IMG/VR virus record: IMGVR_UViG_3300027283_000007
Location: 1 to 28,685 of that record
Strand: one strand, 5' to 3'
Source of the DNA: a virus
Lineage: Duplodnaviria; Caudoviricetes
Length of the DNA stretch: 28,685 nucleotides
Part shown: one piece after another, positions 1,559 through 20,476 of the stretch
Position numbering within the stretch: position 1 is the first letter of the stretch
Layout of the letters: the number at the start of each line of letters is the position of its first letter
Translations under genes and position numbers: made by a program
The notes under the pieces: generated by a model
What the model saw: the letters and a program-made list of their open reading frames with translations, nothing else
Databases searched by the model: none
What the model was told of the DNA's origin: nothing

Positions 1559-2229
1559 ACGGGGACCCCTGTATTGCTGCTGCCGCCCTGTACGCCGCTG
1601 TGAACGTGATCATGGAGACTGATGCCATTACCGATCACATCGACGGATGCGGTTATCTTGCCGGTATGCGTCCATTCCCCGGTTGAATTGATGGCTGGAG
1701 CGTTGATGGTTACGGTTGTCGGTGAAATGATGCTGATGCCGGATTGATTAAACTGCACATATTGCACGGGCGTTCCATTAAGGCAGCCACCGATATAAAT
1801 GCCGTCCTCGGGCGAGAACTTGCGCCGGCTGCCGGGGTTGGCTGGCCCCCTTGCATCGGTCATGGCGTTGGCTTTAACGGCTGATATGTCGGAATGGGCA
1901 AAAATGGCAATGCCGATATCGCCTACTTGCGGGTCAATAATGACCGCATCCGTGCCGCCCTGGATGCGCACATACGGTAAATGATGCAGAACGCCATGAG
2001 GAATAGCGTTGTCAAAACCGTCAAGCTGGTTAACAAGGGGCAAGGCGTCAACAAAGCCGACAGGTGAAAGCTCGCCATTATTCGTAACTCCCTTAATTTG
2101 CACCAGAATAGCGACATTGGTTTGCCCCAGTATTTGGCGAATTAGAAACGCATTCGCGTTAAAATCACTGCCGGCGGATTCCGGTTTTGCCGTGGTTTGA
2201 TAACCGGCCTCAATCTGTTGATTCGACAC
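1555..2229 (-). CDS. Central baseplate spike (GpV/gp138-like)
   Basis: N-terminal OB-fold-like region (IIDPQVGDIG), beta-rich C-terminus, and HDHVHSGV carrying the HxH metal-binding tip motif. Confidence 0.85.
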   Translation of the reverse strand: MSNQQIEAGYQTTAKPESAGSDFNANAFLIRQILGQTNVAILVQIKGVTNNGELSPVGFVDALPLVNQLDGFDNAIPHGVLHHLPYVRIQGGTDAVIIDPQVGDIGIAIFAHSDISAVKANAMTDARGPANPGSRRKFSPEDGIYIGGCLNGTPVQYVQFNQSGISIISPTTVTINAPAINSTGEWTHTGKITASVDVIGNGISLHDHVHSGVQGGSSNTGVPV

Positions 2230-3079
2230 GCCCCGATCCTTCTATATAGGTGAACCACTGTCCGTTCGGTGTTTCGCTTTCCAGCGCGTGGACCACGCTA
2301 AAGATCCCCCAGTTGCCGTTGGCCATGGGTAATTCGCTCCCCTCAATAATGAACCGCCCGCCGAGTTCGGCAGCCGGGTTAAAAATGCTGGTGATGCTGA
2401 TGCCGTTTGATGAGAGTTGCGGATAGCCGACCAAGCCGTTTGACGGTCTCAAGGTGATCGGCTCGCCTTCCGCATGGCCGCCGACCGGCCAGATAGACAA
2501 CACGTTTTTATCGATGCTGTATTCAATGTTCGCGTCTCGGGCGCATTTGCGGATTTGCTCAAGTTTCGTGCCGTAAAAATAGGGGTTCGACAGCGTGACC
2601 TTGACGCCGCCATCCTTAAATGAATAACCCGCATCTTGAGCAAAACCGGCCATGATTTCCGCCACATCAGCCGCCCCTTTGAATGAAGCAGGGTCAGCCG
2701 GACGCGCGGCGGCTGCTGCAGCGGAATAGGCGACAATCGACAGCCCTACGTCCGGCGCTTGGTTGAATTCGCCATAGGCCGTGAATATCTGCCCGACAAA
2801 GACCGTTTTCAGCGTCTCGCCATCGTCGCCGGCCTTAAGCGTCAGCGTGTTTTTGCCCATAATCTGGTTCTGATTCGGGCCTATCGTGGTCAAGCGGTTA
2901 ATGGTCGAAAGCGGCAAGCCGTAAATAATGCACTGGCATTGCCCTTGCGCTTCCCCGCCGACGGCGTTGATGTGCGCGTGGACGCGGAAGCCGGTCAGAT
3001 CAACCGTGTCGCCTTCCTGTTCGCCGAAGCGCCCCTCGCCGAGCGTGATCGTGATATCAATGCGCCTACGCGATAGCAT
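2210..3079 (-). CDS. Baseplate hub protein (Mu gp44/T4 gp27-like)
   Basis: 289 aa immediately upstream of the spike gene; GLVGYP and HALESETPNGQWFT motifs are typical of this myophage group. Confidence 0.75.
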   Translation of the reverse strand: MLSRRRIDITITLGEGRFGEQEGDTVDLTGFRVHAHINAVGGEAQGQCQCIIYGLPLSTINRLTTIGPNQNQIMGKNTLTLKAGDDGETLKTVFVGQIFTAYGEFNQAPDVGLSIVAYSAAAAAARPADPASFKGAADVAEIMAGFAQDAGYSFKDGGVKVTLSNPYFYGTKLEQIRKCARDANIEYSIDKNVLSIWPVGGHAEGEPITLRPSNGLVGYPQLSSNGISITSIFNPAAELGGRFIIEGSELPMANGNWGIFSVVHALESETPNGQWFTYIEGSGRVESTD

Positions 3080-3377
3080 CCGCTTCCTCCGGTGTCAGGT
3101 AGCGCAATTGATAGCGGCTGCCGAGTTCGTCATAAACCGGGTCGGCTGAGTCCTGTGTATCGTGAAAGACCAGATCGCCAATAAACCCGAGATAGGATTG
3201 ACGGACCAATAGGACGCCATTCAAGCACAGGCGGCCGGTGATGATAGGCGCATTATCGACCAGCAGATCCAGATACAGGCCGGTTGATAGGGTGTAAAGG
3301 TTAATGCGGCAATACTGGCCAGCCAGGACTACCTTAAATGTTTGATTGGGCGTAGCTTTGATAGGGATAATGTTCAT
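3066..3377 (-). CDS. Small baseplate protein
   Basis: Likely start at MNIIPIKATPNQTF (ATG 3377, ATGA overlap with the upstream stop), not the ORF-track start at 3476; 103 aa. Confidence 0.7.
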   Translation of the reverse strand: MNIIPIKATPNQTFKVVLAGQYCRINLYTLSTGLYLDLLVDNAPIITGRLCLNGVLLVRQSYLGFIGDLVFHDTQDSADPVYDELGSRYQLRYLTPEEADAIA

Positions 3378-3940
3378 GCCGCTTTTACCGTGCCCTGGTC
3401 CTGGGTTTCGCTGGCGGTCGGTGATTTGGTGTTGCTGTATTCGGCAGTTGCTTGTCGGATCTCGATAAACTTGCAATTAGCAATGATGATGCCGGCCCCG
3501 TTGTCGGTTTCCCGGCGATAATCGAAGGTTTCCAGATTCACGTCGGGGTACACTTTCTCGGGCGTGACAATCGTGTATAGGTCCAGGCTTTTTGACAGTG
3601 TGCCGAGTGCTTCCAGGAACTCGTCACGATCCTCTTTGCTGCCGCCCTTGGCCACTCGTACCCAGCAGGCGAATGGATTATTCACCTTGTTGTAGCTGGC
3701 AAATGCGCCTTGTTCCACCGGGTAATTCGAGATATTGAAGGCGTTTTGAAACTCAATGCCCAGGAACGAATCCGGCGCCAACACTTTATTATTGTCCTCG
3801 TCAAATACCCCCCAGGTCTGGTCAAATAGCGACAGGAAGCGGGAAACAATGGGCGAGGCGATCACGGCAACCGGCGCCAGGATGTCACGCGCAATTGGCG
3901 GGACGCCGGGCAGATCGGGTACATTCGGATAAAGACTCAT
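3374..3940 (-). CDS. Tail tube initiator / Dit-like baseplate protein
   Basis: 188 aa directly after the tape measure gene, with an ISNYPVEQGAFASYNKV motif. Confidence 0.7.
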   Translation of the reverse strand: MSLYPNVPDLPGVPPIARDILAPVAVIASPIVSRFLSLFDQTWGVFDEDNNKVLAPDSFLGIEFQNAFNISNYPVEQGAFASYNKVNNPFACWVRVAKGGSKEDRDEFLEALGTLSKSLDLYTIVTPEKVYPDVNLETFDYRRETDNGAGIIIANCKFIEIRQATAEYSNTKSPTASETQDQGTVKAA

Positions 3941-5925
3941 TGACGCATCCCTGAGGCCGCGTTAAATGTCTGCGTCCTCCGCTCAATCGCTGCCGGTATT
4001 TCAGCGGCGACGCGCTTTGGATCGGTGGCCGGCGTGTGAATCACGATCTGGCCGATTTTGGTTTCCGAGGTTGAACTGTTGCTGACGGGGTTATTGTGCG
4101 TCGTGTTGATCGTTGAATGTTTCGCGCTCATGGCCTGACGGACCGGGGAATGAATGACGGGCTGCGCTTTGATATCAGGCGTCTTAATGTCAGGCGCTTT
4201 TGCTACCTGCCGGCCCTCCATCTGATAAGCAATCGTTTGTCGTTTTTCGGTATCGGATGCCCGGTTTTTTGGGTCGGGGCGCTCATAATGGATCTGTGCG
4301 GCATTGGTTGCTTCGGCGGCTGTTTTTGCGGATCTGATCTTGATTGCGGCGGCTTTCTCGGTCGTCTCCAGTTCGTATTGAGCAAACGCCAGCTGCTCAT
4401 TCAGCGATGAGCGCCTAATATCATGACCCGACCACTGCTTGAACCGCTCCTGCCGATCCGGATGCCATTGAGCAATGCCGTAAGCCTGTCCGCCATCGCC
4501 CACCGCATCCGTTTTCAAGCCGCTTTCAGCCTTGAAATTAGCCACGATGCCGATTGCCTGCTCTTGCGTCCAGCCTTTGCCCTTGAAAAAATCAATGGCT
4601 ATTTGTTCTTTCTGGCCGGCCAACCCTTCCTTGAAGCGTCCGTATTTCTCTTTAGCGCCCTGCATCACGTCATCGTAGGCGTCAAAAATAGAGGACTGCG
4701 GAGCGGCACCGCTATCGATCAGGGCTTTTTTTGCCTCCTCGCTGCCGAAGGTTGCCATAAAGCGAGCAACCCATTCACCGATAGCGCCCTTTGTTGTGTC
4801 TGGCAGCATTTCATCAATGTATTTGCCGATACCGTAGCCCGTGGCCGCCGCCGCACTCACTGCAAGCAGCGCGGTGGATACGCCGGTTAATGCGCCAGTC
4901 AGCAGCAATAACGGCGCCACAAATTCGGCTACTTTCAGCGCCAGCAGGCCGGATAAGACGGTTTTCCAGCCGCCTATCGTCTGAACAAATTCGTCGGCAT
5001 GGCTCGTGAAGCTCTTAACTGCTTCGGCAGACTCTTCCAGCCATTTTTTAAACTGATCGGACTTGACCCAGGCCGAGAACTCATTGAGTTTGGCAATCAG
5101 CTTGTCGAGATAGGGTGTCAGGTTGAACAGGATCTCGCGCCCGGTGCTTTCGAACGAGGCTTTGAGATTGTTCCACTTTTCAAACAGCATCTGCGCCTGT
5201 TGCGCCTGCTTCTCATTGATGCCGGTCAGCTTTTCGCTTGCCGCCATCTGGGCGCTTAATGCCTCGGGACCGCCTTTCAGGATGTTGAATAGGTTCCGGC
5301 CAAAGCCCATGCGCTGCGCAATCGATAGCGCAGCCAGTTCGCCGCGCTCCTCCATGGCTTTTTTCAGGATGGCGGAGACGGCCAGCAGGTAGGATTCAGT
5401 ATCTTGCAAGCCTTCGTTAGTGCCGCCCCATTGGAAGAATGACGCCACTTCCTCGCCGCGCATACCGAGTTGAAAATCAGCCACGACTTTAGCCGCCCGG
5501 CCCACGGCGCCCATCATTTCCTCAGCCGACCCACCGGCATTCTTCGCCATCAGGTTCAGCGCGGCCAGCTTGGATTCGGCCACGCCGGTATTTTCTGACA
5601 GCCGACCTAGTGCCGCCGTAGAGCTGATGGTGTCGGAGGTGAAGTTACTAACGCCTTTGCCCGCCGTAAACACGGCAAACAGGCTTAAGGCTTGATTGCG
5701 TATTTTTGCGAACGATTCAGCCGCTATTTTAGCCCTGGCATTCAGTTCTTTAGCGCGGTCCGATTGCGCCTGAGCGGATTTCTTGCCCAGGTCATCCAGT
5801 TCGGCATTCTGCCGGCGCGACTGATCGACAAAGCCGTCTTGCACTTTGCCTGCTTCTTCCGTGCCGCGCTTAAAGCCGCTATTGTCTAAGCCGAGCGTTA
5901 CGACCAACTGATCAATCACGTTCAT
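3937..5925 (-). CDS. Tape measure protein with a C-terminal phage tail lysozyme domain
   Basis: 662 aa: helical Ala-rich N-terminus, hydrophobic central segment, then GWTQEQAIGIVANFKAESG...GDGGQAYGIAQWHPDR (Phage_lysozyme2-like). Confidence 0.9.
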   Translation of the reverse strand: MNVIDQLVVTLGLDNSGFKRGTEEAGKVQDGFVDQSRRQNAELDDLGKKSAQAQSDRAKELNARAKIAAESFAKIRNQALSLFAVFTAGKGVSNFTSDTISSTAALGRLSENTGVAESKLAALNLMAKNAGGSAEEMMGAVGRAAKVVADFQLGMRGEEVASFFQWGGTNEGLQDTESYLLAVSAILKKAMEERGELAALSIAQRMGFGRNLFNILKGGPEALSAQMAASEKLTGINEKQAQQAQMLFEKWNNLKASFESTGREILFNLTPYLDKLIAKLNEFSAWVKSDQFKKWLEESAEAVKSFTSHADEFVQTIGGWKTVLSGLLALKVAEFVAPLLLLTGALTGVSTALLAVSAAAATGYGIGKYIDEMLPDTTKGAIGEWVARFMATFGSEEAKKALIDSGAAPQSSIFDAYDDVMQGAKEKYGRFKEGLAGQKEQIAIDFFKGKGWTQEQAIGIVANFKAESGLKTDAVGDGGQAYGIAQWHPDRQERFKQWSGHDIRRSSLNEQLAFAQYELETTEKAAAIKIRSAKTAAEATNAAQIHYERPDPKNRASDTEKRQTIAYQMEGRQVAKAPDIKTPDIKAQPVIHSPVRQAMSAKHSTINTTHNNPVSNSSTSETKIGQIVIHTPATDPKRVAAEIPAAIERRTQTFNAASGMRQ

Positions 5926-6152
5926 GATTTAGCGTTTCTCTTGATAATCAAATCTTGGTTGTAGGCATCCACGTTCACCACTTCGAGCAGGTTGTAAACA
6001 TCCTCAAGACTGTAAACGGTTTGGAGTTCGTGCAGGGTGGCCACTTTATGCGATAGAGCAGCCCCGATTAGCCGGGGCACGTTCTGGTAGTTCATTAATC
6101 CATCATCGCCGCCGTCGCCCGGTCCGAAGTCGAGCGGGCGACGGCGATTTAA
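5922..6152 (-). CDS. Tail assembly chaperone extension (gpT-like), probably reached by -1 frameshift
   Basis: Not in the ORF track. The -1 frame from the chaperone stop reads LNRRRPLDFGPGDGGDDGLMNYQNVPRLIGAALSHKVATLHELQTVYSLEDVYNLLEVVNVDAYNQDLIIKRNAKS*. Its TGA overlaps the tape measure ATG. An internal ATG at 6095 would give a 57-aa standalone product. Confidence 0.8.
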   Translation of the reverse strand, partial: LNRRRPLDFGPGDGGDDGLMNYQNVPRLIGAALSHKVATLHELQTVYSLEDVYNLLEVVNVDAYNQDLIIKRNAKS

Positions 6153-8548: not shown

Positions 8549-9289
8549 TTACGGCATGTCAGGCCAATAGCGATTGGATTTCATGACATTCTCTAAATAT
8601 GGTATTACCTGAATGTTATTCTCAACGTGAAGTCCGCACACTAATTCTGAATTTATCGGAACGATATGATCAACATGCCACTCTAATCCGGTCAGTTTTG
8701 TCCTTAATCTAGCTAAGTCATAAGCCTCTTCTATAAAAAATTCATTAGCCCATGGCACCGAAGCATTTTGCATCAAGATTCTTCTGGTTCTATACCAAAA
8801 ACTGACCTTATCGGGATTGCCTTGCCTGTACTTTTGACGTATAGCCTTTACTTTTCCCTTGTTTTTAATCTTCCATTCTTTTTTTACAGCATAGTATCTA
8901 TCTTTGTTTAAAGAGTAAGCAATTCTGGCGCAATATCTTCTTCTTTCCTTTCTAATTTCAGTTAGAAACAACTCTTTCCACAACAGAACATGAGACTCAT
9001 GAAGCGATTCAAGAAAAGATTTTTTCTTGCTTCCCAGTCTTAATTTCCGTTGTTGCGATATTTTTTCTTTATTCCAATAATAGTGCCTGTTTGAATCCGC
9101 TCTTAATTTTTCTCTGTTTTCGTCGGCATACTGACGTCGACTATCCTTTCTTCTTGCATGGACTTCTCTCTGATAAGCTGGGTAGCATGTTTTGCATTTG
9201 TTGCCAAACCCGTCTTTTCTGCTCTTGTCTTTGTTGAATTGAGATACGTGCTTTTGTTCTTTGCATATGCTGCAAGTTTTTTGATTCAT
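8549..9289 (-). CDS. Free-standing HNH homing endonuclease
   Basis: N-terminal CxxC...CxxC, basic helical linker, C-terminal WHVDHIVP...CGLHVENNIQVIP...N..KSN; AT-rich relative to its neighbours. Confidence 0.88.
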   Translation of the reverse strand: MNQKTCSICKEQKHVSQFNKDKSRKDGFGNKCKTCYPAYQREVHARRKDSRRQYADENREKLRADSNRHYYWNKEKISQQRKLRLGSKKKSFLESLHESHVLLWKELFLTEIRKERRRYCARIAYSLNKDRYYAVKKEWKIKNKGKVKAIRQKYRQGNPDKVSFWYRTRRILMQNASVPWANEFFIEEAYDLARLRTKLTGLEWHVDHIVPINSELVCGLHVENNIQVIPYLENVMKSNRYWPDMP

Positions 9290-11688: not shown

Positions 11689-12717
11689 TTACAGGCCGAT
11701 CATTTGAGCGATTGCCAAAGGCTGCTTGATGATTGCGCCCCATGTGCCGGATGTCTTTTTCTGTGCGAAACTGGACAGATCAACCTTGATCGGATGCGCT
11801 CTCAACTTCTCATTGAACGCACAATAGCCGGTATCCTGACCGTCGATGCTTTCAACAATCAGTTGCATCAGCTGGCCGGCAGCAGTCGCATATTGCGTGG
11901 CCGTTTCGATGCGGATGTTCGGAAAGTTCTTTTTGATCTGGTCAGTGACATTGACGTTGTATTGGTTTGTCTTGGTCATGTTGACCTCCATTTCTGGAGA
12001 CATGGCGAGGCACATACGCGCATCACGCTCGACCAGGCCTTTAGTCTGAGTAACCAGCTGACCGAACAACTTGACGATATCGCCATAAATAGCGGCGCCG
12101 TCTTTCGTGCTCCATAACGTGCCTGAGCTCGCGCCGGTAGCGTCGGGAGCAATCGCCGCTTGCAAGGCAGGATCATTCAGAATGCCGTAGTTTTTCAGAC
12201 CATCAACGCCGTAGAAGTGCGATGCGTTCATGAACTTATCGAGCACCAGCGTAGACGCTACGTTCAGGTTCTGCGCGTAATTGATCTTCGCCTCGGCGGC
12301 AATGGCCAGTTCACGTTCGCCCCATTGGGTCACGGTCTGGAACAGATAGGATTCACGGCTGACCCAGTTCGCATTTGAGCCTACAGAACCGTTAGCGTCA
12401 AAATCGCCGTAAGAAGCTACCTCGCCCGTTGACTCAACAACCGGGAACATTGCTGTTTGCGTGGTCCAGTCGCCCTTTTTAGTCTCGCCCAGGATCGAGG
12501 CCGCCTTATTAGGCGTGACCAGAATGCGGATGATTTCAGGGTCCAGGTAGTTAGTCAGGAAAGCCGGAACGCCCGCGTTCGATGCGGTGACCAGTGCCGG
12601 CTGGGCATCCATGGCCAGTGAAATATCCATGGCCAGTTCGTGAGGCTCTAGCAGCCCTCTAGCCATCGGAACATGCACACCATGCCGGGCTAATTCATTG
12701 TGATTGATTTGTAGCAT
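11689..12717 (-). CDS. Major capsid protein (DUF2184 family, HK97 fold)
   Basis: 342 aa with GETKKGDW, YGILNDP and QKKTSGTWGAII motifs; followed by a terminator. Confidence 0.88.
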   Translation of the reverse strand: MLQINHNELARHGVHVPMARGLLEPHELAMDISLAMDAQPALVTASNAGVPAFLTNYLDPEIIRILVTPNKAASILGETKKGDWTTQTAMFPVVESTGEVASYGDFDANGSVGSNANWVSRESYLFQTVTQWGERELAIAAEAKINYAQNLNVASTLVLDKFMNASHFYGVDGLKNYGILNDPALQAAIAPDATGASSGTLWSTKDGAAIYGDIVKLFGQLVTQTKGLVERDARMCLAMSPEMEVNMTKTNQYNVNVTDQIKKNFPNIRIETATQYATAAGQLMQLIVESIDGQDTGYCAFNEKLRAHPIKVDLSSFAQKKTSGTWGAIIKQPLAIAQMIGL

Positions 12718-13674: not shown

Positions 13675-14733
13675 TTAGATAGATTTAAGCTTTGCAGCGG
13701 TAGGGAATTGTGTTGCGAAATCAGAAGCCGCCGCCGCATCATGCGCCATTTTTGGCTTCTCGGCTTTTGCTGTGGCCAGTTTGATTATCGATGGATAGGC
13801 GGACGGGTGAACGCCGGTCACATCGATGTTCAGATGATCAAGCGCCAGCTTATAAACGGCTTCGGCGCTATCCATCGCGGCCACTTCGCCAATGATCGGC
13901 GCCACATCCTTTTCGGCCTGACGGATGGCTTTGAACTTATTCATCGCGGCATCGTGAGCGGCGTTGATAGCTGCATCCATGGCTTTTTTGTCGTCCTTCT
14001 CTTCTTCTTCGTCGTCCTCATCCTCGGCAACGGCTTCCTCTTCTTCGGTCTCTTCCTTTTCGGGCTCAGCGTCGCCAGCCAGCATTTTGGCGAGTTCTTT
14101 CGGATCAATAGCCGCGTCTTGCGCCAGCTTCAGCGCTGCGGCCAAAAGTTCTTCTTTGGTCATTGGTTTGTTCTCGGGTTGTTTAAAAGGGTCTGAATCG
14201 GAAACAACACAGTCGCGGCCAGCTCTTCCAAGCTCCACAATCGCCACATGATTCCCGATGATATTGCGCATCACTCCATCGAATTTAACGCCTTCAAACT
14301 CTCCTGGTGTCATATCGGGCGTGTAACGGTAAGCACAGGACAGTTCACACTGTTCCTTGGTCTCAATGCCGGCAATCGCCGCCGCATCCCAAACCACAAG
14401 CGAGTTGCGAAGGAACGGCTTAACGAACTCGGCATCAGTACCGGTACTACCGACTACGTTTTCCTTTTTCGGGTCGTCAGCGGAAACCGGGACATGCCGA
14501 TCCAGCAAAGGGATGTGATTAAATGAGGCGGCGCCTTTGGCCAGTTCTTCCGGATCACGCAGCAATTGATAAATTCGGTCGGCATCCAGTCCGAGTTCTT
14601 TATGCCCCGGTATCTCGCGGCCATAATAAGGATTAACGGTGGCCTTACTGATGTTCGACATAGCCACATGCAAGCGGCCATCGGCATCGACTGTGCGTGA
14701 CGAGCGATCAAAGGCTAGCAGTAATTCAGGCAT
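13675..14733 (-). CDS. DUF2213 prohead protease/scaffold-like protein
   Basis: NPYYGREIP, ELSCAY and GNHVAIVELGRAG motifs, followed by an acidic/helical scaffold-like C-terminus. Confidence 0.85.
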   Translation of the reverse strand: MPELLLAFDRSSRTVDADGRLHVAMSNISKATVNPYYGREIPGHKELGLDADRIYQLLRDPEELAKGAASFNHIPLLDRHVPVSADDPKKENVVGSTGTDAEFVKPFLRNSLVVWDAAAIAGIETKEQCELSCAYRYTPDMTPGEFEGVKFDGVMRNIIGNHVAIVELGRAGRDCVVSDSDPFKQPENKPMTKEELLAAALKLAQDAAIDPKELAKMLAGDAEPEKEETEEEEAVAEDEDDEEEEKDDKKAMDAAINAAHDAAMNKFKAIRQAEKDVAPIIGEVAAMDSAEAVYKLALDHLNIDVTGVHPSAYPSIIKLATAKAEKPKMAHDAAAASDFATQFPTAAKLKSI

Positions 14734-14790
14734 GGCTAGGCTCCATCAGCAAAAAATCCGTGGATACCCCTATAACACATGCGCTATCGG

Positions 14791-14825
14791 TGCTATATAA
14801 TCGAGTTTCAATCATCAAAGTGGAG
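14791..14825 (+). promoter_or_regulatory. Promoter -10 and RBS of the opposite-strand moron
   Basis: TATAAT at 14796-14801 and GGAG at 14822-14825 before ATG 14832; no clear -35. Confidence 0.55.
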
Positions 14826-14831
14826 TACGAA

Positions 14832-15209
14832 ATGTTATTAGGAATTTTGGCGGTACTATTCGCCGCAGTCTTTTTCAGAGAACTGAAATTACTGCTGGTT
14901 CTCTTGTTGTTGGTACTGGTCTGGAATTTTCCGACCGCTCAGGCCGGGCCGGTTGTCGATAAAGAGTTAGAGCAATGCGCCGGTATTGCGGCCATGGCCA
15001 GTACCGTGGCCAGCGTAAGAAACAATCAATTGCCCGCACAGGCGGCGATGCAGATCGCCACAGGGCAGTTTGGATCAGGGTCTAAATGGAATTTCCCAGA
15101 AGAGGGGATTCAAGGGGTTGTTGATATCATTTATGACTCAGGATATGCGAGTCCGGACCAGGTCAAAGAGTCCGTGTTTAATGAGTGCTACAAGCCGGCT
15201 AATCGTTGA
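14832..15209 (+). CDS. Moron: membrane-anchored or exported protein (125 aa)
   Basis: Start moved from 14697 to ATG 14832 because of the RBS. Two hydrophobic segments, an AQA signal-peptidase-like site, then a helical domain bracketed by two Cys. Confidence 0.75.
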   Translation: MLLGILAVLFAAVFFRELKLLLVLLLLVLVWNFPTAQAGPVVDKELEQCAGIAAMASTVASVRNNQLPAQAAMQIATGQFGSGSKWNFPEEGIQGVVDIIYDSGYASPDQVKESVFNECYKPANR

Positions 15210-15984
15210 ATCCGACCAGAATAGCGGAATCGGTACATCTGCAATTGTTTTCCATTCCTGGATGTGTCCATTTGCCATCCAGGAACATGCCCTTACGAAT
15301 ATCGTAAACCTCGCCATCAGCTTTCAAGTGTGACGGTCTCGGGGTTTTACCCGCGTGTGAATGATGCCAACGCGCGTGGGTCAGGCCCATATCAAGCCGC
15401 CGCGTTCTGTTGAGCGTGGCAGTGGCCTTGTTGCTCTGGTCCTGCGCGATAAGAATCGCCCGTTTACGCGTCAATGCGTAGCGTTTCTGTAACTCATCGG
15501 TCAACGTTGACAGCTTTCGGCCTTGCTGAACCGACCGCATCACCAGCCCCTGTACGTCCGTCAAATGCTGCTGAGCAATCGACTTGATTAAGCCGACCTG
15601 CTCATTGATCACGGCAACATAGGCGTTCTGCATCGATTCGGTCATTGTGAACTTCACGGCAAAGCCCGAATCCTTAAGGATTCGTTGTAGCGATCCGTCA
15701 GAGTAATTCTTCGTCTTTTGCGCGAACCAGAGCGCCAGCTTTTCGGCGCCCTCGTCAAAGTTTTTCAGCCATTGCTTGGCCAGCTTGTCCATGACTTCTT
15801 GAAGCGCGTCTGCTGGTATAGCATCGTCCTGGGCAATACCGGGATAATTGGCCTTGTAGGATGACGTCAGCCAGTACGCGATTGATTTGTGCATTTCACG
15901 CACCAGCTTTTTAAGTCGGCGTTGGTATTCGGCGCTGATGCCGGCATTGGGATAGACGGGCTTAAGCGTTTTTGTGTTTTTCAT
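15199..15984 (-). CDS. Head morphogenesis protein (MuF / SPP1 gp7 family), short form
   Basis: RAILIAQDQ, W.HS....PRPSH...DG and PG..NNCRC motifs; no C-terminal toxin extension. Confidence 0.9.
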   Translation of the reverse strand: MKNTKTLKPVYPNAGISAEYQRRLKKLVREMHKSIAYWLTSSYKANYPGIAQDDAIPADALQEVMDKLAKQWLKNFDEGAEKLALWFAQKTKNYSDGSLQRILKDSGFAVKFTMTESMQNAYVAVINEQVGLIKSIAQQHLTDVQGLVMRSVQQGRKLSTLTDELQKRYALTRKRAILIAQDQSNKATATLNRTRRLDMGLTHARWHHSHAGKTPRPSHLKADGEVYDIRKGMFLDGKWTHPGMENNCRCTDSAILVGFND

Positions 15985-16138
15985 TGAGTAATGAAATGCA
16001 ACCGGCCAGCACGACCTTAAACAAGTCAGGTTTATTGTTAAACCAGTTGTTTAAGGTCTGAGTGCTGACACCGGTTATTTTTGAGACTTCGGCAAGGTTT
16101 TTAAGCCCTGCCGACCTTGCCGCTTCTGATGCGGTCAT
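15962..16138 (-). CDS. Small HTH regulator (Aca-like context), 58 aa
   Basis: MTASEAARSAGLKNLAEVSKITGVSTQTLNNW; ATG 16138 overlaps the stop of the acidic ORF (ATGA). Confidence 0.8.
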   Translation of the reverse strand: MTASEAARSAGLKNLAEVSKITGVSTQTLNNWFNNKPDLFKVVLAGCISLLNEKHKNA

Positions 16139-16293
16139 AGTGTCACGCCAACCTGATTCCATTCATCATCACATAACGCAACAAGGAAACCGCGCGTCTT
16201 ATAATCATCAACAGCTATATCAAATTGATCTTCGTCGTCAATGTCGATTTCTTCAAATATTTCAGAGTCTTTAAAATATGCCTTTGCTTTCAT
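16135..16293 (-). CDS. Small highly acidic protein (52 aa), anti-defence candidate
   Basis: Below the ORF-track cutoff. MKAKAYFKDSEIFEEIDIDDEDQFDIAVDDYKTRGFLVALCDDEWNQVGVTL has 15 D/E and 5 K/R. It fills the gap exactly and is translationally coupled to the HTH gene. Confidence 0.75.
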   Translation of the reverse strand: MKAKAYFKDSEIFEEIDIDDEDQFDIAVDDYKTRGFLVALCDDEWNQVGVTL

Positions 16294-16309
16294 GACAATT
16301 CACCGTTCC

Positions 16310-18328
16310 TTAGTAAGTCAAGTTATTTATCTTTGCAATTCGATTGTTTAAATATAAAGACAATCCGTAGTGCTTATCATGTTTAGATGCTTCTTCATCA
16401 AACTCTTCAAACATCTTCAACATTGCTTCATTTGTGTTTGTTATGTTGTGCCGCTTTGCCACATCCCTAAGAACTGTTTTCACATAAGGCAGAGGCGAAC
16501 CGTTTTTCAAAAATACAACATGATTTACGGCCTTATTAAATTCTTCTGTGGCTTGCTCTGTAGTTCTCATTTTCTTACCCTCATCGGCTTTGTTTGATTC
16601 GGGTTTATTATTGCTCTCTTTCCTTGTTTCTGTCAAATTATTTGATGCTTTAGGGGCAATATCCTTCTTTTCAACATCCTTTGACTTGCTCTTAACCTTA
16701 GAAAACGTCTTGCCATTCAGCTTTCCGCCAGCGCCGCCAATAACCTTGCCTGAGCCATCGATCAACACTCGCTTGCCGGTGCGCTCGCCATTATCCGGAT
16801 CTTCGCCGCCATTGACCGTAATCCAATGCGCGGCATCCATCGCGGCCTCCGCTTCATCGTCGTCGTCAAAATCCGCTTCCCCGGTCAAGCCGTCATACCC
16901 GCTATCGGGATCATTCGCGATGCGCTGCCGTGATTCGTCGGGGCTGATGACACCGCCATCAATCAACGTAACATCGGTATCCGCATTGATCTTCCTGATA
17001 TTGGCTTTCTGCTCATCGCTCATTTCTTCCAGGCTTTCAAAATCGAAGGTGATATCGTCGTCAATTTCCCCGAACTCGGAAAGCTGAATGATATCGATAA
17101 CCTTTTTCAACGGATCTCTTAACAGCGCCTCTTGAGCTGATGCAATGTCGTCGTAGAAAACTTTTATTTCGCCATCACTGGAGGCATTGAGGCCGCTGGG
17201 CGTAATGCCCAGAAACTTAACCAGCGGAATGCTTGACACAGAGCTCATATGTTCCTGTGCTTGGGCCTGCAACTCATGAATGCCAGATAGCGGCGTATTG
17301 AACTGGAAAAACTCCTCAGTATCCTTGTCCAGCAGCATCAAGCCGCGATTATCCCGCAAGTTGTTGAACAGCTGCGCACGGGCGATAAACTGCGCGTCAT
17401 CCATGCCCGACAACACGCCCGACATGTTGGTCATAATGCCGGAGACTGAAAACGAGTGCAGCAGATCGGACACGGAGTCACGCGTACGGGTCCAGTTATT
17501 CACATACGGTTCGGCCATCTGCGTCATTGAAAGACCGCCGAAGTTGTAGGCCGCTTTCAGCAAGTCTGGCACTTCCCGGCTTACGAATGTCAACAAGCGC
17601 GAACTGTGAACCGTTTTACCAAGTACATACCACGCGGACGGACGGTAATAGTTCTGGGCCAGCGGATCGGTAGAATTGTAATCGCTCGGATACGTCCAGA
17701 CCGGCTCAATCACTTTGAAACCGCGTAAAGCACCCTTTTTGATCTTCGCTTTATCAACCAGCAGAACGGTTTTTAGCTCTTCCGGGTCTTCCGACGCCAC
17801 GCCACCATTCGGCGTTTTAACATCGATGTAAATTTGTGCGCGGCCATAGAGACCGTCAAGCTCTATTGCCTTTTTGAACAGGTCCTTAATTTTGTGCTTT
17901 TTTAGGGCGCCTTCAATGGCCTTGATTCTCTCGTCCTTGTCGCCTCCCGTGGACTGTAACTTAATCCATTTACGCGTCATCTCCTTGGCCGGTACTTCGC
18001 TCATTTTCCGGTATTCCGGCAATGTGCCCAGAACGGCTAAATTCTGGTAGCCCTGAAAATGATTGCCGGCATACGCCTGATTCACGTAATCATAGGGCGT
18101 TGAGTCCATAGCCAGCGCCTGCGAGCGCTCATCCGCTGGAATAACGCCTGCCGGTGGCTCATAACGGGTAATGAGTGCTAATTCCTCATCCTGCTCCGGC
18201 AATGTTCTTGCTAATGCCGATAAGCTGATGCCCTTGCGCCGCACTTCAGCCGGAACTGGAGCGCGTACCGTTACCGCCTCGGCTTTCTTGCTCTTGCCGA
18301 AAAGTTTCTGTTTCAAGCGTTTGATCAT
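16310..18328 (-). CDS. Portal protein (DUF1073 family) with a ~175-aa C-terminal extension
   Basis: Follows terL; VHSSRL and KFLGITPSGLNASSDGE motifs. The core ends in an acidic tail near residue 495, after which an unrelated extension begins. Confidence 0.88.
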   Translation of the reverse strand: MIKRLKQKLFGKSKKAEAVTVRAPVPAEVRRKGISLSALARTLPEQDEELALITRYEPPAGVIPADERSQALAMDSTPYDYVNQAYAGNHFQGYQNLAVLGTLPEYRKMSEVPAKEMTRKWIKLQSTGGDKDERIKAIEGALKKHKIKDLFKKAIELDGLYGRAQIYIDVKTPNGGVASEDPEELKTVLLVDKAKIKKGALRGFKVIEPVWTYPSDYNSTDPLAQNYYRPSAWYVLGKTVHSSRLLTFVSREVPDLLKAAYNFGGLSMTQMAEPYVNNWTRTRDSVSDLLHSFSVSGIMTNMSGVLSGMDDAQFIARAQLFNNLRDNRGLMLLDKDTEEFFQFNTPLSGIHELQAQAQEHMSSVSSIPLVKFLGITPSGLNASSDGEIKVFYDDIASAQEALLRDPLKKVIDIIQLSEFGEIDDDITFDFESLEEMSDEQKANIRKINADTDVTLIDGGVISPDESRQRIANDPDSGYDGLTGEADFDDDDEAEAAMDAAHWITVNGGEDPDNGERTGKRVLIDGSGKVIGGAGGKLNGKTFSKVKSKSKDVEKKDIAPKASNNLTETRKESNNKPESNKADEGKKMRTTEQATEEFNKAVNHVVFLKNGSPLPYVKTVLRDVAKRHNITNTNEAMLKMFEEFDEEASKHDKHYGLSLYLNNRIAKINNLTY
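16607..16645 (-). promoter_or_regulatory. Sigma70-type promoter embedded in the portal CDS, with a palindromic operator over the -35
   Basis: TTGACA (16636-16631), 18-nt spacer, AATAAT (16612-16607). Perfect inverted repeat TCAAAT-n-ATTTGA at 16633-16645. GAGGG RBS before the in-frame ATG at 16570. Confidence 0.7.
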
Positions 18329-19752
18329 CGGGCGGTTCGTTTTAGGGTTTCGGCGGAAATCTGTAGAGGTTTAGCCAGCATGGAATCGACGTAAGCCATG
18401 ATGAAACTGTCACCCAAATTGGGTGAATCAATCTCGCGTTTAGCCAGATCCTTCTTGCTCTCGACCTTTACCCGGCCAGCCAGGTCATAATCCCGTTTAG
18501 GCGTGCAGAGCTCGTCTATTAACTGGTCAAGATGCGGCATGGATGAGTCGATAAAGATCATTTCATCATCGCGGAACTGTTGCCCGTTCTTGACTGCGTT
18601 ATAAGTGTTGCGCAATCGGTCAGCCACCAGCCACCACGCTTGAGCCTTGATGTTCGAGAAGAAGTCCTTGTTCTTAATCTCAGTGCCGGGATATTTAGCA
18701 TCGGGCTTATAGACGGCGCCACCGGCAAAAAACTTGTTATGCATGACGCGCTCATGCTGCAAAACACCAATATTCAGCTCATTGAACTTGGCGCCTGATG
18801 TAGCCCCGACGCCGATAGCATCATAGATAATGGATGCTTTACGTTCTCTGGCTGAATGCCATACCCGCGTACAGGACTTAAGCAACTCGTCCTCTTTGGC
18901 TTTCCACAGATCAGCCCAGACAGCAAGGGAGCCATGCGCGTATATCTGAGCGCAAGAATCCTCGCCGGCGTCGGCCACATCGAACCCGATGCGCCTAGAG
19001 CCTGTGACCTCGATGCCGAGCGTTTTATGCGCATCAATCGCGGACATCAAGTGAGAACGCCGAATGATTGCTTCGTCGTCGTCGTCTTTCGGGACGCCCA
19101 GATAAATATGGTTGTACTCATCCTCATCTTCGGCTTTAGCATCTGCAATAACCTTTCGCATTGTAGATGAAAGATAAGGGTTTTCATCGTAATTTATCTT
19201 TCTTGTTATCGCCCCTTCAGGGGGATTTGTTACAAAGCGACGATATACCCAGTCTGTTGAGAATCGCGGATTAAATACGATGAATATCTTTGAGTTCTCG
19301 GCTCGGATTGTTGGCATAATGATTCGCCATTGTTCCTCGCTTAAATCCTCAGCTTCTTCTATCCATAATATTTCTACACCAGCAATACCTTTGATCTCAT
19401 TAAGGTTTCGCTGAATGCCTAAAAAGGTAAAATTCGATCCGGTTCTTTTGTGTACTATTGAGTTTTCAGTTATCTTGAACTCGTCGCGCAATCCTTTTGC
19501 GTCAATGCACTCTTCTATTACTGTCTTGACTGAATCTGATATGCGGTTTTGGAACTGCCTGACGCATAAAAAGTTTATCTTATGCGTGCAGGCAAGGAAT
19601 ACACAGAAACCGGCTGTATGATACGTCTTGCTTGATGCTCTGCCACCGTACAAGACGTAATAACGATGATTTGATTCGTAAAAACCTTTGAGATTAGGAT
19701 TTAATAAAGGGATGCTTTTAACCGGCTTGTAAATATTCCCATTTATATCCAT
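18325..19752 (-). CDS. terL: Terminase large subunit (PBSX family)
   Basis: Walker A YGGRASSKT, Walker B ILWIEEAE, FNP coupling motif, and nuclease motifs GFDVA and SPNLGDS. Confidence 0.95.
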   Translation of the reverse strand: MDINGNIYKPVKSIPLLNPNLKGFYESNHRYYVLYGGRASSKTYHTAGFCVFLACTHKINFLCVRQFQNRISDSVKTVIEECIDAKGLRDEFKITENSIVHKRTGSNFTFLGIQRNLNEIKGIAGVEILWIEEAEDLSEEQWRIIMPTIRAENSKIFIVFNPRFSTDWVYRRFVTNPPEGAITRKINYDENPYLSSTMRKVIADAKAEDEDEYNHIYLGVPKDDDDEAIIRRSHLMSAIDAHKTLGIEVTGSRRIGFDVADAGEDSCAQIYAHGSLAVWADLWKAKEDELLKSCTRVWHSARERKASIIYDAIGVGATSGAKFNELNIGVLQHERVMHNKFFAGGAVYKPDAKYPGTEIKNKDFFSNIKAQAWWLVADRLRNTYNAVKNGQQFRDDEMIFIDSSMPHLDQLIDELCTPKRDYDLAGRVKVESKKDLAKREIDSPNLGDSFIMAYVDSMLAKPLQISAETLKRTAR

Positions 19753-20476
19753 AAGACTTGTTTCTCTTTCCCGTCAGGCAAAACCAAATGCCTGTTCTTG
19801 TCGCCTTACTAGACCCGTTATCCCTTAACCATACTGCGGCATTTTCAATGCTATCAAATACAATACCGTTATCAATGCACTTAACTTCTCTTTTGTTTGG
19901 CTGGCTGTCAGACATTTTTTGTCTTGCTTCGGCGCTTCTCTTCTTGCCTCTGTGCCAATCAGCTACTTTCTTGATTGTTTCAGGGCTTGGCTTTCTTCCT
20001 TTGCGAACAATAGACATTTTTAACCTTGTCTCTGCGCTGGCCTTTGTTCCTCTATGTGATGCAGCCGTTCTTTCAACGGCATCCCTAGGCTGTTTCCTGC
20101 CTCTATTTGCAGCGGCTCTTTTCTGAACTAATTCCAAGGGCTGCTTCTTTCCCTTGTGCGCTCTTCTAATAGCCTCTCTTGTTTCAGGCGAATGTCTGTG
20201 CCCGGTTATGCCATCGCCGCCATTTGTGCGATTGCACAAAACAACCCCTTCCTCTTTAAGAAATTCTATTGTTTCGACTTCAATATCAAATGCTTCTTGC
20301 TCTGTCAGTCCTGAAAACAGTATTTCAATATTAAGGCCATGCTTTTTGTATGTACGATTCCAAAGCTCACTTCTTCCGTGAGTATTAGAGGCTCTTCTAC
20401 CTCTACCTTTGCCGACATAAAAAGGGTAATTGTTGCTAGCCTTCCGATGAAGGTAGACATAAAAATCATTTTTCAT
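19718..20476 (-). CDS. GIY-YIG-like homing endonuclease with NUMOD3 repeats
   Basis: FYVYLH...FYVGKG...R, N.T.GGDG, repeated HSPETREAI/SAETRLKMS/SAEARQKMS units, and a C-terminal NUMOD1-like HTH; overlaps the terL start by 35 nt. Confidence 0.88.
   Translation of the reverse strand: MKNDFYVYLHRKASNNYPFYVGKGRGRRASNTHGRSELWNRTYKKHGLNIEILFSGLTEQEAFDIEVETIEFLKEEGVVLCNRTNGGDGITGHRHSPETREAIRRAHKGKKQPLELVQKRAAANRGRKQPRDAVERTAASHRGTKASAETRLKMSIVRKGRKPSPETIKKVADWHRGKKRSAEARQKMSDSQPNKREVKCIDNGIVFDSIENAAVWLRDNGSSKATRTGIWFCLTGKRNKSYGYKWEYLQAG

Follow-up and report, generated by a model that had tools for sequence, protein, structure and literature searches.

The window analysed here, 28,685 nucleotides (nt) of the virus record IMGVR_UViG_3300027283_000007, is part of a tailed-phage genome, and its portal gene holds a small gene cassette whose predicted promoter and operator, ribosome-binding site (RBS) and first start codon are all translated as part of the portal reading frame. 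The cassette codes for two short proteins of 86 and 52 amino acids (aa), here called cargo, and for a 58-aa helix-turn-helix (HTH)-like protein; the first cargo is at the same time the C-terminal end of the portal protein. Judged by sequence comparison the feature is real, recurrent and richer than it seemed at first: an operon resembling those of anti-CRISPR (acr) and anti-CRISPR-associated (aca) genes, grafted into the slot of portal-fused effectors. We would lay even money on an Aca-like cassette that represses itself and works early, and whose first cargo would be produced a second time, late in infection, as part of a portal fusion that we predict to be cleaved in the head and taken along to the next host. 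The regulation is well supported by comparison; the dual delivery and an anti-defence function of the cargo are what we infer beyond it.

A preliminary description of this DNA had listed the palindrome, the promoter, the RBS, the internal ATG and open reading frames (ORFs) of 86, 52 and 58 aa, and all of them lie where it placed them, on the minus strand (Table 1). Its picture was incomplete in three respects: the WIT domain, a probable protease site preceding this domain, and the nature of the whole block as a swappable insertion all went unnoticed.

A cassette embedded in six portal genes

The layout of the window recurs, so that six distinct phages share it: a portal core is followed by a WIT domain, by an operator and -35 element read in the portal frame as S-N-N/S-L-T, by an RBS and ATG, by unrelated cargo and finally by the HTH-like gene. 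The proposed fusion of the first gene to the portal is thereby seen in five other phages. Two of these loci (L014 and L021), reached via the HTH-like protein, have the same layout as the window with unrelated cargo. A scan for the DNA pattern that was blind to the HTH-like gene gave 37 distinct sites, five of them in frame in ORFs with more than 400 codons upstream. An HTH-like gene lay downstream of all five in-frame sites vs none of the 32 others (four of which had less than 1 kb), and the five included two new loci, L253 and L257. The sixth locus, L366, came from a scan with the WIT domain (best 80 of 91 matches; 64 distinct ones besides the window). It was also recovered with a variant of the DNA pattern, together with six other sites without an HTH-like gene. 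A single-sequence scan with the WIT region of the window matched only itself. In all six embedded loci a -10 element (extended in three), an RBS and an in-frame ATG follow S-N-N/S-L-T; RBS and ATG are intact and the HTH-like gene is present in six out of six.

The portals of the six loci fall into four lineages that are 15-26% identical, while the HTH-like proteins of the window, L014, L021 and L366 are 57-71% identical, which suggests that the cassette has moved from portal to portal. The codons TCA, AAT/AGT, TTG and ACA are conserved exactly in all three loci whose discovery did not depend on the DNA pattern; by the codon use of each portal, the chance of this is 0.026, 0.026 and 0.006, with L021 and L366 being kin. 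L257 (positions 1632-5156, minus strand) encodes a 1174-aa portal with two linkers in tandem, both in frame, each followed by an RBS, an ATG and a different cargo. The first of these two cargos is related to that of L014 over 73 aa (52% identity), and the second has, by eye, a short GTEKQ-type motif in common with the cargo of L021. Altogether the WIT scan yielded eight portal-WIT fusions including the window, five of which contain the cassette in full; in L318 and L353 both the operator and the HTH-like gene are missing. Other long portal tails were seen in L176, L177, L182, L189, L191, L194, L197 and L210, many of them opening with a repeated HPR...GKF motif in place of WIT and some enzymatic-looking by eye.

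The HTH-like protein and its operator

The HTH label of the 58-aa protein comes from weak profile matches (Pfam HTH_3 at E=0.001, under the family cut-off; phrog_409 transcriptional regulator at E=3.5e-6). Of the translationally coupled HTH gene in the preliminary description, the coupled ORF is present, its ATG overlapping the stop of the preceding 52-aa ORF, and the HTH assignment stands on those matches and on a four-helix model. A start that would give 66 aa (16162) was rejected, as most homologues start at the MTAS residue. With a profile built from 15 homologues, the family comprises 1,309 clusters at 50% identity (E<=0.001); longer members of 125-231 aa (P0013-P0016, P0066, P0068) contain the domain two to four times in tandem, as separate stretches that match the profile. 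We fetched 169 loci, taken from the best 80 of 108 viral and best 80 of 302 metagenome matches, five matches of an initial scan and seven out of 37 annotated phage records; 136 loci were left after removal of exact duplicates, close kin being counted separately. Among GTDB genomes, 11 loci were found, three of them strong and all in metagenome bins, and the HTH-like protein is absent from all portal-core relatives L170-L248.

The palindrome of the window is conserved upstream of these genes. Counting only regions of at least 700 nt, examining 900 nt upstream of the HTH-like gene and excluding the window's own copies, exact TCAAA-N3-TTTGA occurs upstream in 19 of 113 relatives vs 0/103 downstream and 0/77 far upstream; with one mismatch the numbers are 54/113, 6/103 and 6/77. 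A detector for operator plus promoter, designed on the same loci it scored, was positive in 68 of 136 loci, and on equal lengths in 53/98 upstream regions vs 5/98 on the opposite strand, 1/91 downstream and 1/71 far upstream. The 58-aa protein was modelled as four helices with a predicted local distance difference test (pLDDT) value of 91. Its homodimer model scored 0.65 vs 0.01 for the best of three controls (pLDDT 85, runs agreeing in 100% of contacts), a mark to which 20/30 solved pairs and 1/23 single chains came up; the dimer fits a palindromic site, DNA binding being a prediction. Autoregulation through operator and HTH-like protein is, on these comparisons, highly probable.

Embedded and free-standing cassettes differ in where the operator sits. 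In 65 loci it lies in the spacer against the -10 element and frequently recurs some 30 nt further upstream, and in three detected loci it lies over the -35 element, every one of them inside a portal gene. The consensus of the free-standing promoter, read from sequence, has stops in all three frames, and just 16 of the 65 loci with this usual promoter have an open frame across -35 to -10. The embedded form evades these stops because its operator has moved onto the -35 element. We take this shift as a sign that reading frame and regulation may both be under selection, a single origin of the arrangement being possible. The final 15 nt of the leader in the window, ATG included, are identical to those of the free-standing cassette L129, which bears out the internal start proposed earlier and makes a free product from the ATG at 16570 quite probable. 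Stacked cassettes are suggested by L019, where three sites closely resembling the operator-promoter lie upstream of the HTH-like gene, at about -1018, -747 and -258.

Insertion and exchange in close relatives

In contigs of the runs X17, X10, X11, X12 and X14, from two studies, the portal end is joined directly to the MuF gene, 876-883 nt of the window being replaced by 18-19 others. One X17 and one X14 contig have the joint 15971-16848, and X10, X11, X12 and X14 have the joint 15968-16852. Other contigs, in four of four runs of one study, match the WIT domain, the operator and the -35 element up to 16619 and then diverge for up to several hundred letters; among the matches shown, besides which there are 23 weaker ones, no difference is listed between 16619 and 16655. 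In the 30 loose letters past 16619 the frame stays open, and TAAAGT follows at a 17-nt spacer. Pieces of HTH homologues are present in those runs as well. Runs X10-X14 are uncovered over most of both cargo genes, and only the joints and loose ends were used. The empty and the diverging alleles of these close relatives mark the block as an optional insert, and cargo appears, from these alignments, to be exchanged inside the promoter spacer.

Cargo genes

Between promoter and HTH-like gene, the 68 detected loci contain 112 ORFs in 90 clusters, with a median length of 60 aa. HTH homologues are thus linked to variable small genes, as the preliminary description had supposed, and the family comparison agrees with its Aca-like architecture, in which a sigma70-type promoter containing a conserved operator precedes variable small genes and a terminal HTH-like gene. 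Profile scans covered 196 ORFs, consisting of 88 cluster representatives and 108 more (105 of the 107 further upstream ORFs and 3 embedded cargos). AcrIF11 (NF052490, 120.7 bits, cut-off 50) was found in L125 as the sole gene between promoter and HTH-like gene. Lar-like matches under the cut-off occurred in L047 and L156, and a weak Lar match in L082. Two dUTPases came from loci without a detected promoter, and a few ORFs matched unnamed families. By association, and on thin evidence, the HTH-like family qualifies as Aca-like.

Neither cargo of the window matched Pfam, PHROGs or NCBIfam in profile scans. For the 86-aa protein no homologue was found by word search, in the atlas, or by tblastn across all fetched loci; the 52-aa protein has one relative record only, 98% identical, its atlas matches being below 0.8. 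New Acrs are usually without homologues. A single-sequence model of the 86-aa protein reached pLDDT 80 for the best of five (others 50-64), with nothing at E<=0.001 among viral structures and a top PDB match of Z 5.4. Five of its top 14 structural rows (6hmj, 4akk, 6wsh, 1sd5 and 1qo0; Z 4.5-5.4, below significance) are what we take to be ANTAR RNA-binding regulators.

Fate of the portal tail and proposed course of infection

The motif AMDA stands at portal residues 496-499, just before the WIT domain, and again at residues 35-38 of the major capsid protein, probably the place of capsid maturation in phages of this class; in Pa193, its counterpart in the capsid protein alignment is AMDS 62-65. 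Members of the class A[MFQHLG]D[AS] number 9 in the 1940 aa of the head proteins, compared with 1 in the 5710 aa of other proteins, and 2000 shuffles gave no more than 4. The portal motif is therefore a likely prohead-protease site, as far as sequence can tell. In the structural accounts of the related phages, the E217 capsid protein is visible only from residue 66, adjacent to that capsid motif, and the C-terminal barrel of the portal projects into the head (PMC10329688), and the Pa193 portal gave no peptides in liquid chromatography-mass spectrometry for residues 1-93 and no density for 529-765 (PMC11456595). We hold cleavage and packaging of the portal tail to be slightly more probable than not. 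Many very long proteins likewise carry a WIT domain close to their start, and a role of this domain in head loading is a guess. Among L317-L387, WIT lies near the start of many ORFs open for more than 1,200 codons, and in L312-L315 near the start of ORFs of about 550 aa.

In the course of infection that we propose, host sigma70 polymerase would fire the internal promoter early, after DNA entry, and ribosomes would initiate at the ATG at 16570, so that the 86-aa protein in free form, the 52-aa protein and the HTH-like protein would be made. Dimers of the latter would bind the palindrome over the -35 element, shut the promoter and limit read-through into the MuF and head genes. Late in infection, the 672-aa portal would be built into the procapsid with its tail pointing into the head, where the DUF2213 protein, presumably the protease, may cut at AMDA, so that a WIT-plus-cargo piece of about 174 aa stays in the head. 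By analogy with the AcrIF11 and Lar-like neighbours of the family, the cargo would most likely counter a host defence, which we hold to be a little more probable than its opposite. More tentatively, a counter-defence protein may be delivered twice from one DNA stretch, at first as a pre-made portal tail released by the protease and injected with the genome, then afresh from the repressor-controlled linker promoter, with cargo swapped by recombination between the operator and the HTH-like or MuF gene, and with the HTH-like protein as a new Aca-type marker family.

Alternative explanations

Several of our observations weigh against this reading, and they are given here with the explanations to which they lend themselves. 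The operon could be real and self-repressing with an incidental fusion, i.e., inserted at the portal-MuF junction with loss of the portal stop, only the free proteins being of consequence. Locus L075 has an ordinary two-operator cassette, unfused, between the portal stop and MuF. In L324 a stop follows the WIT domain and no HTH-like gene lies in the 1057 nt available; this locus was considered as promoter-less, which was rejected, as operator and -35 element lie behind the stop. Because of the unfused L075 and the broken L324, the fusion is common at the portal-MuF junction, not obligatory. Relatives without the block, a first-gene frame that stays open across the operator in 9/53 free-standing cassettes, and the possibility that the embedded form arose in one event would also suit an incidental fusion. 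It has to account, however, for six loci in four portal lineages, in which the promoter always reads S-N-N/S-L-T in frame with the cargo ATG and always comes after WIT, for an operator on the -35 element, the codable arrangement, in none of the 65 free-standing promoters, and for the tandem linkers of L257 that are both in frame. We consider an incidental fusion unlikely, and we believe with some confidence that the fusion is under selection.

Under another alternative, regulation and fusion hold and the cargo serves host takeover, superinfection exclusion, phage-phage competition or some other accessory role. The 196 scanned neighbour ORFs include one clear Acr, as a raw count, and beside it the Lar matches are weak or under the cut-off; all six embedded loci have cargos with zero Pfam or NCBIfam family matches, and the window's two proteins are without homologues. 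The description of the two cargos as anti-defence effectors is not established by these results, nor does its small acidic gene apply in general, as the 86-aa protein has a net charge of +1, only the 52-aa protein is acidic and 40% of the cargo ORFs are net negative. Just 15% of Aca-like homologues are reported to adjoin known or candidate Acrs (Shehreen et al. 2022, PMC9410906). Against a non-defence role stand AcrIF11 and the Lar-like proteins as the only functionally named cargo matches inside detected cassettes, the extreme turnover (90 clusters for 112 ORFs), which fits an arms race, and the conflict domains described on portal tails (Iyer et al. 2017, PMC5512222). This alternative appears to us improbable, slightly more so than an incidental fusion.

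Much less credible is that both the promoter and the internal start have become vestigial, with the 86-aa domain existing only within the portal and the downstream genes being read from the late transcript. The 'strong' promoter of the preliminary description is unsupported, since the -10 element lacks its first T and the spacer has 18 nt, and decay of such elements does occur, as in the second linker of L257, whose operator and -35 element have decayed, and in L324. The exactly kept linker codons, the RBS, ATG and HTH-like gene in six of six loci, and a leader end equal to a free-standing one speak for a working cassette. Some further points weigh against the main reading itself. The detector missed 49 loci with at least 900 nt upstream, besides 19 short ones. 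The structures closest to the HTH-like model were ribosomal L20 domains (Z 6.4); Aca10 and AcrIIA1 reached Z 3.8, and none of these matches was significant. As to cleavage, the pattern A[MFQHLG]D[AS] was picked after being seen, and the other embedded loci have looser A/M/F/G-D-A/G motifs before the WIT domain.

That the motifs arose by chance in a portal tail rich in AT, or that the assembly is at fault, can be practically dismissed. Counts inside the window are at chance level, with 10 perfect 6-1-6 palindromes in 28.7 kb and 5 promoter-like sites in 14700-18500 vs 4.2 +/- 2.2 in shuffles, this promoter being the top-scoring one (11/12). The significance of palindrome and promoter thus comes from the relatives and not from counts within the window, and there the operator counts, the pattern scan, the WIT scan, the detector and the contig coverage refute a chance origin. 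Contigs of run X6, which has the study code of two possible source runs and is hence not independent, span 14987-17375 with zero differences, and an assembly error can be set aside.

Relation to described systems

In the accounts of acr-aca operons, promoters carry one or two inverted repeats, one of them in the core promoter (Shehreen et al. 2022, PMC9410906). The cassettes share with these operons (PMC9410906; Aca7/Aca11, PMC12658196) a consensus-like sigma70 promoter with repeats, small variable genes and a terminal gene for a single-HTH protein of about 60 aa, and AcrIF11 partners the present HTH-like family in one locus (L125), as it does Aca5 and Aca7. Acr and anti-restriction genes are described as clustering (Pinilla-Redondo et al., PMC7648647). 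Unlike in those operons, promoter, operator, RBS and start sit here inside a structural gene and are translated, and the window's cargo matches no known Acr. The HTH-like protein is not one of Aca1-10, judging by motif search and inspection by eye. Five motifs of the family had 0 matches in the supplement of Shehreen 2022 that lists the Aca1-10 sequences, and 0 matches in eight supplementary files of AcaFinder (PMC9765179), whose protein-sequence content is unconfirmed. A PDB profile search to E=1 did not find an Aca for the 58-aa protein, and its model had no structural match at E<=0.001.

The portal- or MuF-fused polyvalent effectors of Iyer et al. (2017, PMC5512222) are similar in that variable domains follow the portal core in frame and were proposed to be packaged and injected; for P1 DdrB, proteolytic release was proposed there. 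They differ in that no internal promoter, start or repressor is described in the main text, which contains the word 'promoter' 0 times, and in that the present cargo matches none of the Pfam-modelled polyvalent domains (no Pfam match for the six embedded cargos, a distant member of conflict domains such as PBECR, 2H, InPase or ART being possible). With the Pbunavirus portals of E217 and Pa193 (PMC10329688, PMC11456595), the window's portal shares a homologous core and a C-terminal part that extends into the head, and the N-termini of portal and capsid protein are there possibly cleaved; cleavage of a C-terminal extension, as predicted here, is not part of what those accounts show. A repressor-controlled promoter embedded in a portal gene was not found in full-text literature, which included few subscription papers and bioRxiv supplements, where the HTH-like protein might appear among predicted Acas.

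As a rule, synthesis of anti-CRISPR proteins begins once the DNA has entered, hence first infections often fail. If our reading is true, the same protein, packaged in the virion and expressed early under a repressor, would close this gap, and two strategies that have been described separately, acr-aca operons and portal-fused effectors, would be joined in one coding stretch. As gene callers miss the internal start, such cargo would be hidden in 'portal' annotations. Regardless of the fusion, the HTH-like family and its operator offer a new guilt-by-association handle, with 90 cargo clusters from 68 loci, nearly all of them unnamed; if the reading is true, the marker family of 1,309 clusters points to many candidates for anti-defence genes.

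Genomic setting and other observations

On the minus strand, the window encodes a terminase, a portal of the PF06381 family, MuF, a DUF2213 protein, cement and major capsid proteins, a DUF3383 sheath and baseplate genes. The best annotated relatives of the portal are in Klebsiella, Aeromonas and Pseudomonas phages (42-55% identity, core only), and portal and capsid protein are homologous to their E217 and Pa193 counterparts. GC content is 0.51 in the portal core and drops to 0.35 in the cargo, with 16 of 60 letters at 16321-16380.

Table 1. Positions of the cassette, its parts and the neighbouring head genes in the window.
Feature	Position	Strand	Basis or remark
Portal ORF, 672 aa	18328-16310	-	Pfam Phage_portal_3 (PF06381), 313 bits, residues 95-452; C-terminal extension ending in the 86-aa cargo
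AMDA, portal residues 496-499, likely prohead-protease site before the extension	16832..16843	-	Motif class enriched in head proteins; cleavage predicted
WIT domain (HWITV...VIGGAGGKLNG)	16700..16834	-	phrog_62 N-terminal match, E=7.8e-5; alignment; 64 further distinct carriers
Predicted operator palindrome TCAAAT-A-ATTTGA	16645-16633	.	Right half is the -35 element; read S-N-N-L-T in the portal frame
Predicted sigma70-type promoter: TTGACA 16636-16631, 18-nt spacer, AATAAT 16612-16607	16607..16636	-	Sequence pattern
Switch point in promoter spacer, close relatives	16619	.	Different -10, leader and downstream sequence beyond it
RBS GAGGG 16582-16578 and internal ATG 16570	16568..16582	-	ATG in frame with portal ORF
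Cargo 1, 86 aa, four predicted helices, net charge +1	16310..16570	-	Portal C-terminal domain, likely a free protein too
Cargo 2, 52 aa, net charge -10	16293-16135	-	ORF
58-aa HTH-like protein, predicted dimeric repressor of the operator	16138-15962	-	Weak profile matches; stop overlaps MuF start
Accessory block of 876 nt, WIT domain to HTH-like gene	15972..16847	.	Missing in close relatives
MuF minor head gene, right flank	15199..15984	-	PF04233, 50.4 bits
DUF2213 protein, prohead protease and scaffold by position	13675..14733	-	Six AxD[AS] motifs
AMDA, major capsid protein residues 35-38	12604..12615	-	Reference for cleavage motif; aligns to residues 62-65 of the Pa193 major capsid protein

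A terminator-like site at 16016-16004 was set aside as being at chance level. Five operator-like sites with one mismatch are found elsewhere in the window. Between MuF and the DUF2213 gene lies an antisense ORF (14697-15209, plus strand) with a hydrophobic N-terminal part and a weak phrog_2315 match. It has a promoter-like site of its own at 14772-14801, so its true start is probably downstream of the listed GTG. L021 and L366 have small antisense ORFs after MuF as well. Two likely homing endonucleases are encoded on the minus strand, a NUMOD3-containing ORF just upstream of the large terminase gene (19718-20476) and, by eye, an HNH-like ORF before the sheath gene (8549-9289). In L075, the gene after MuF (4188-5960, plus strand) has, by eye, an N-terminal NUDIX-like segment fused to a protease-scaffold region.

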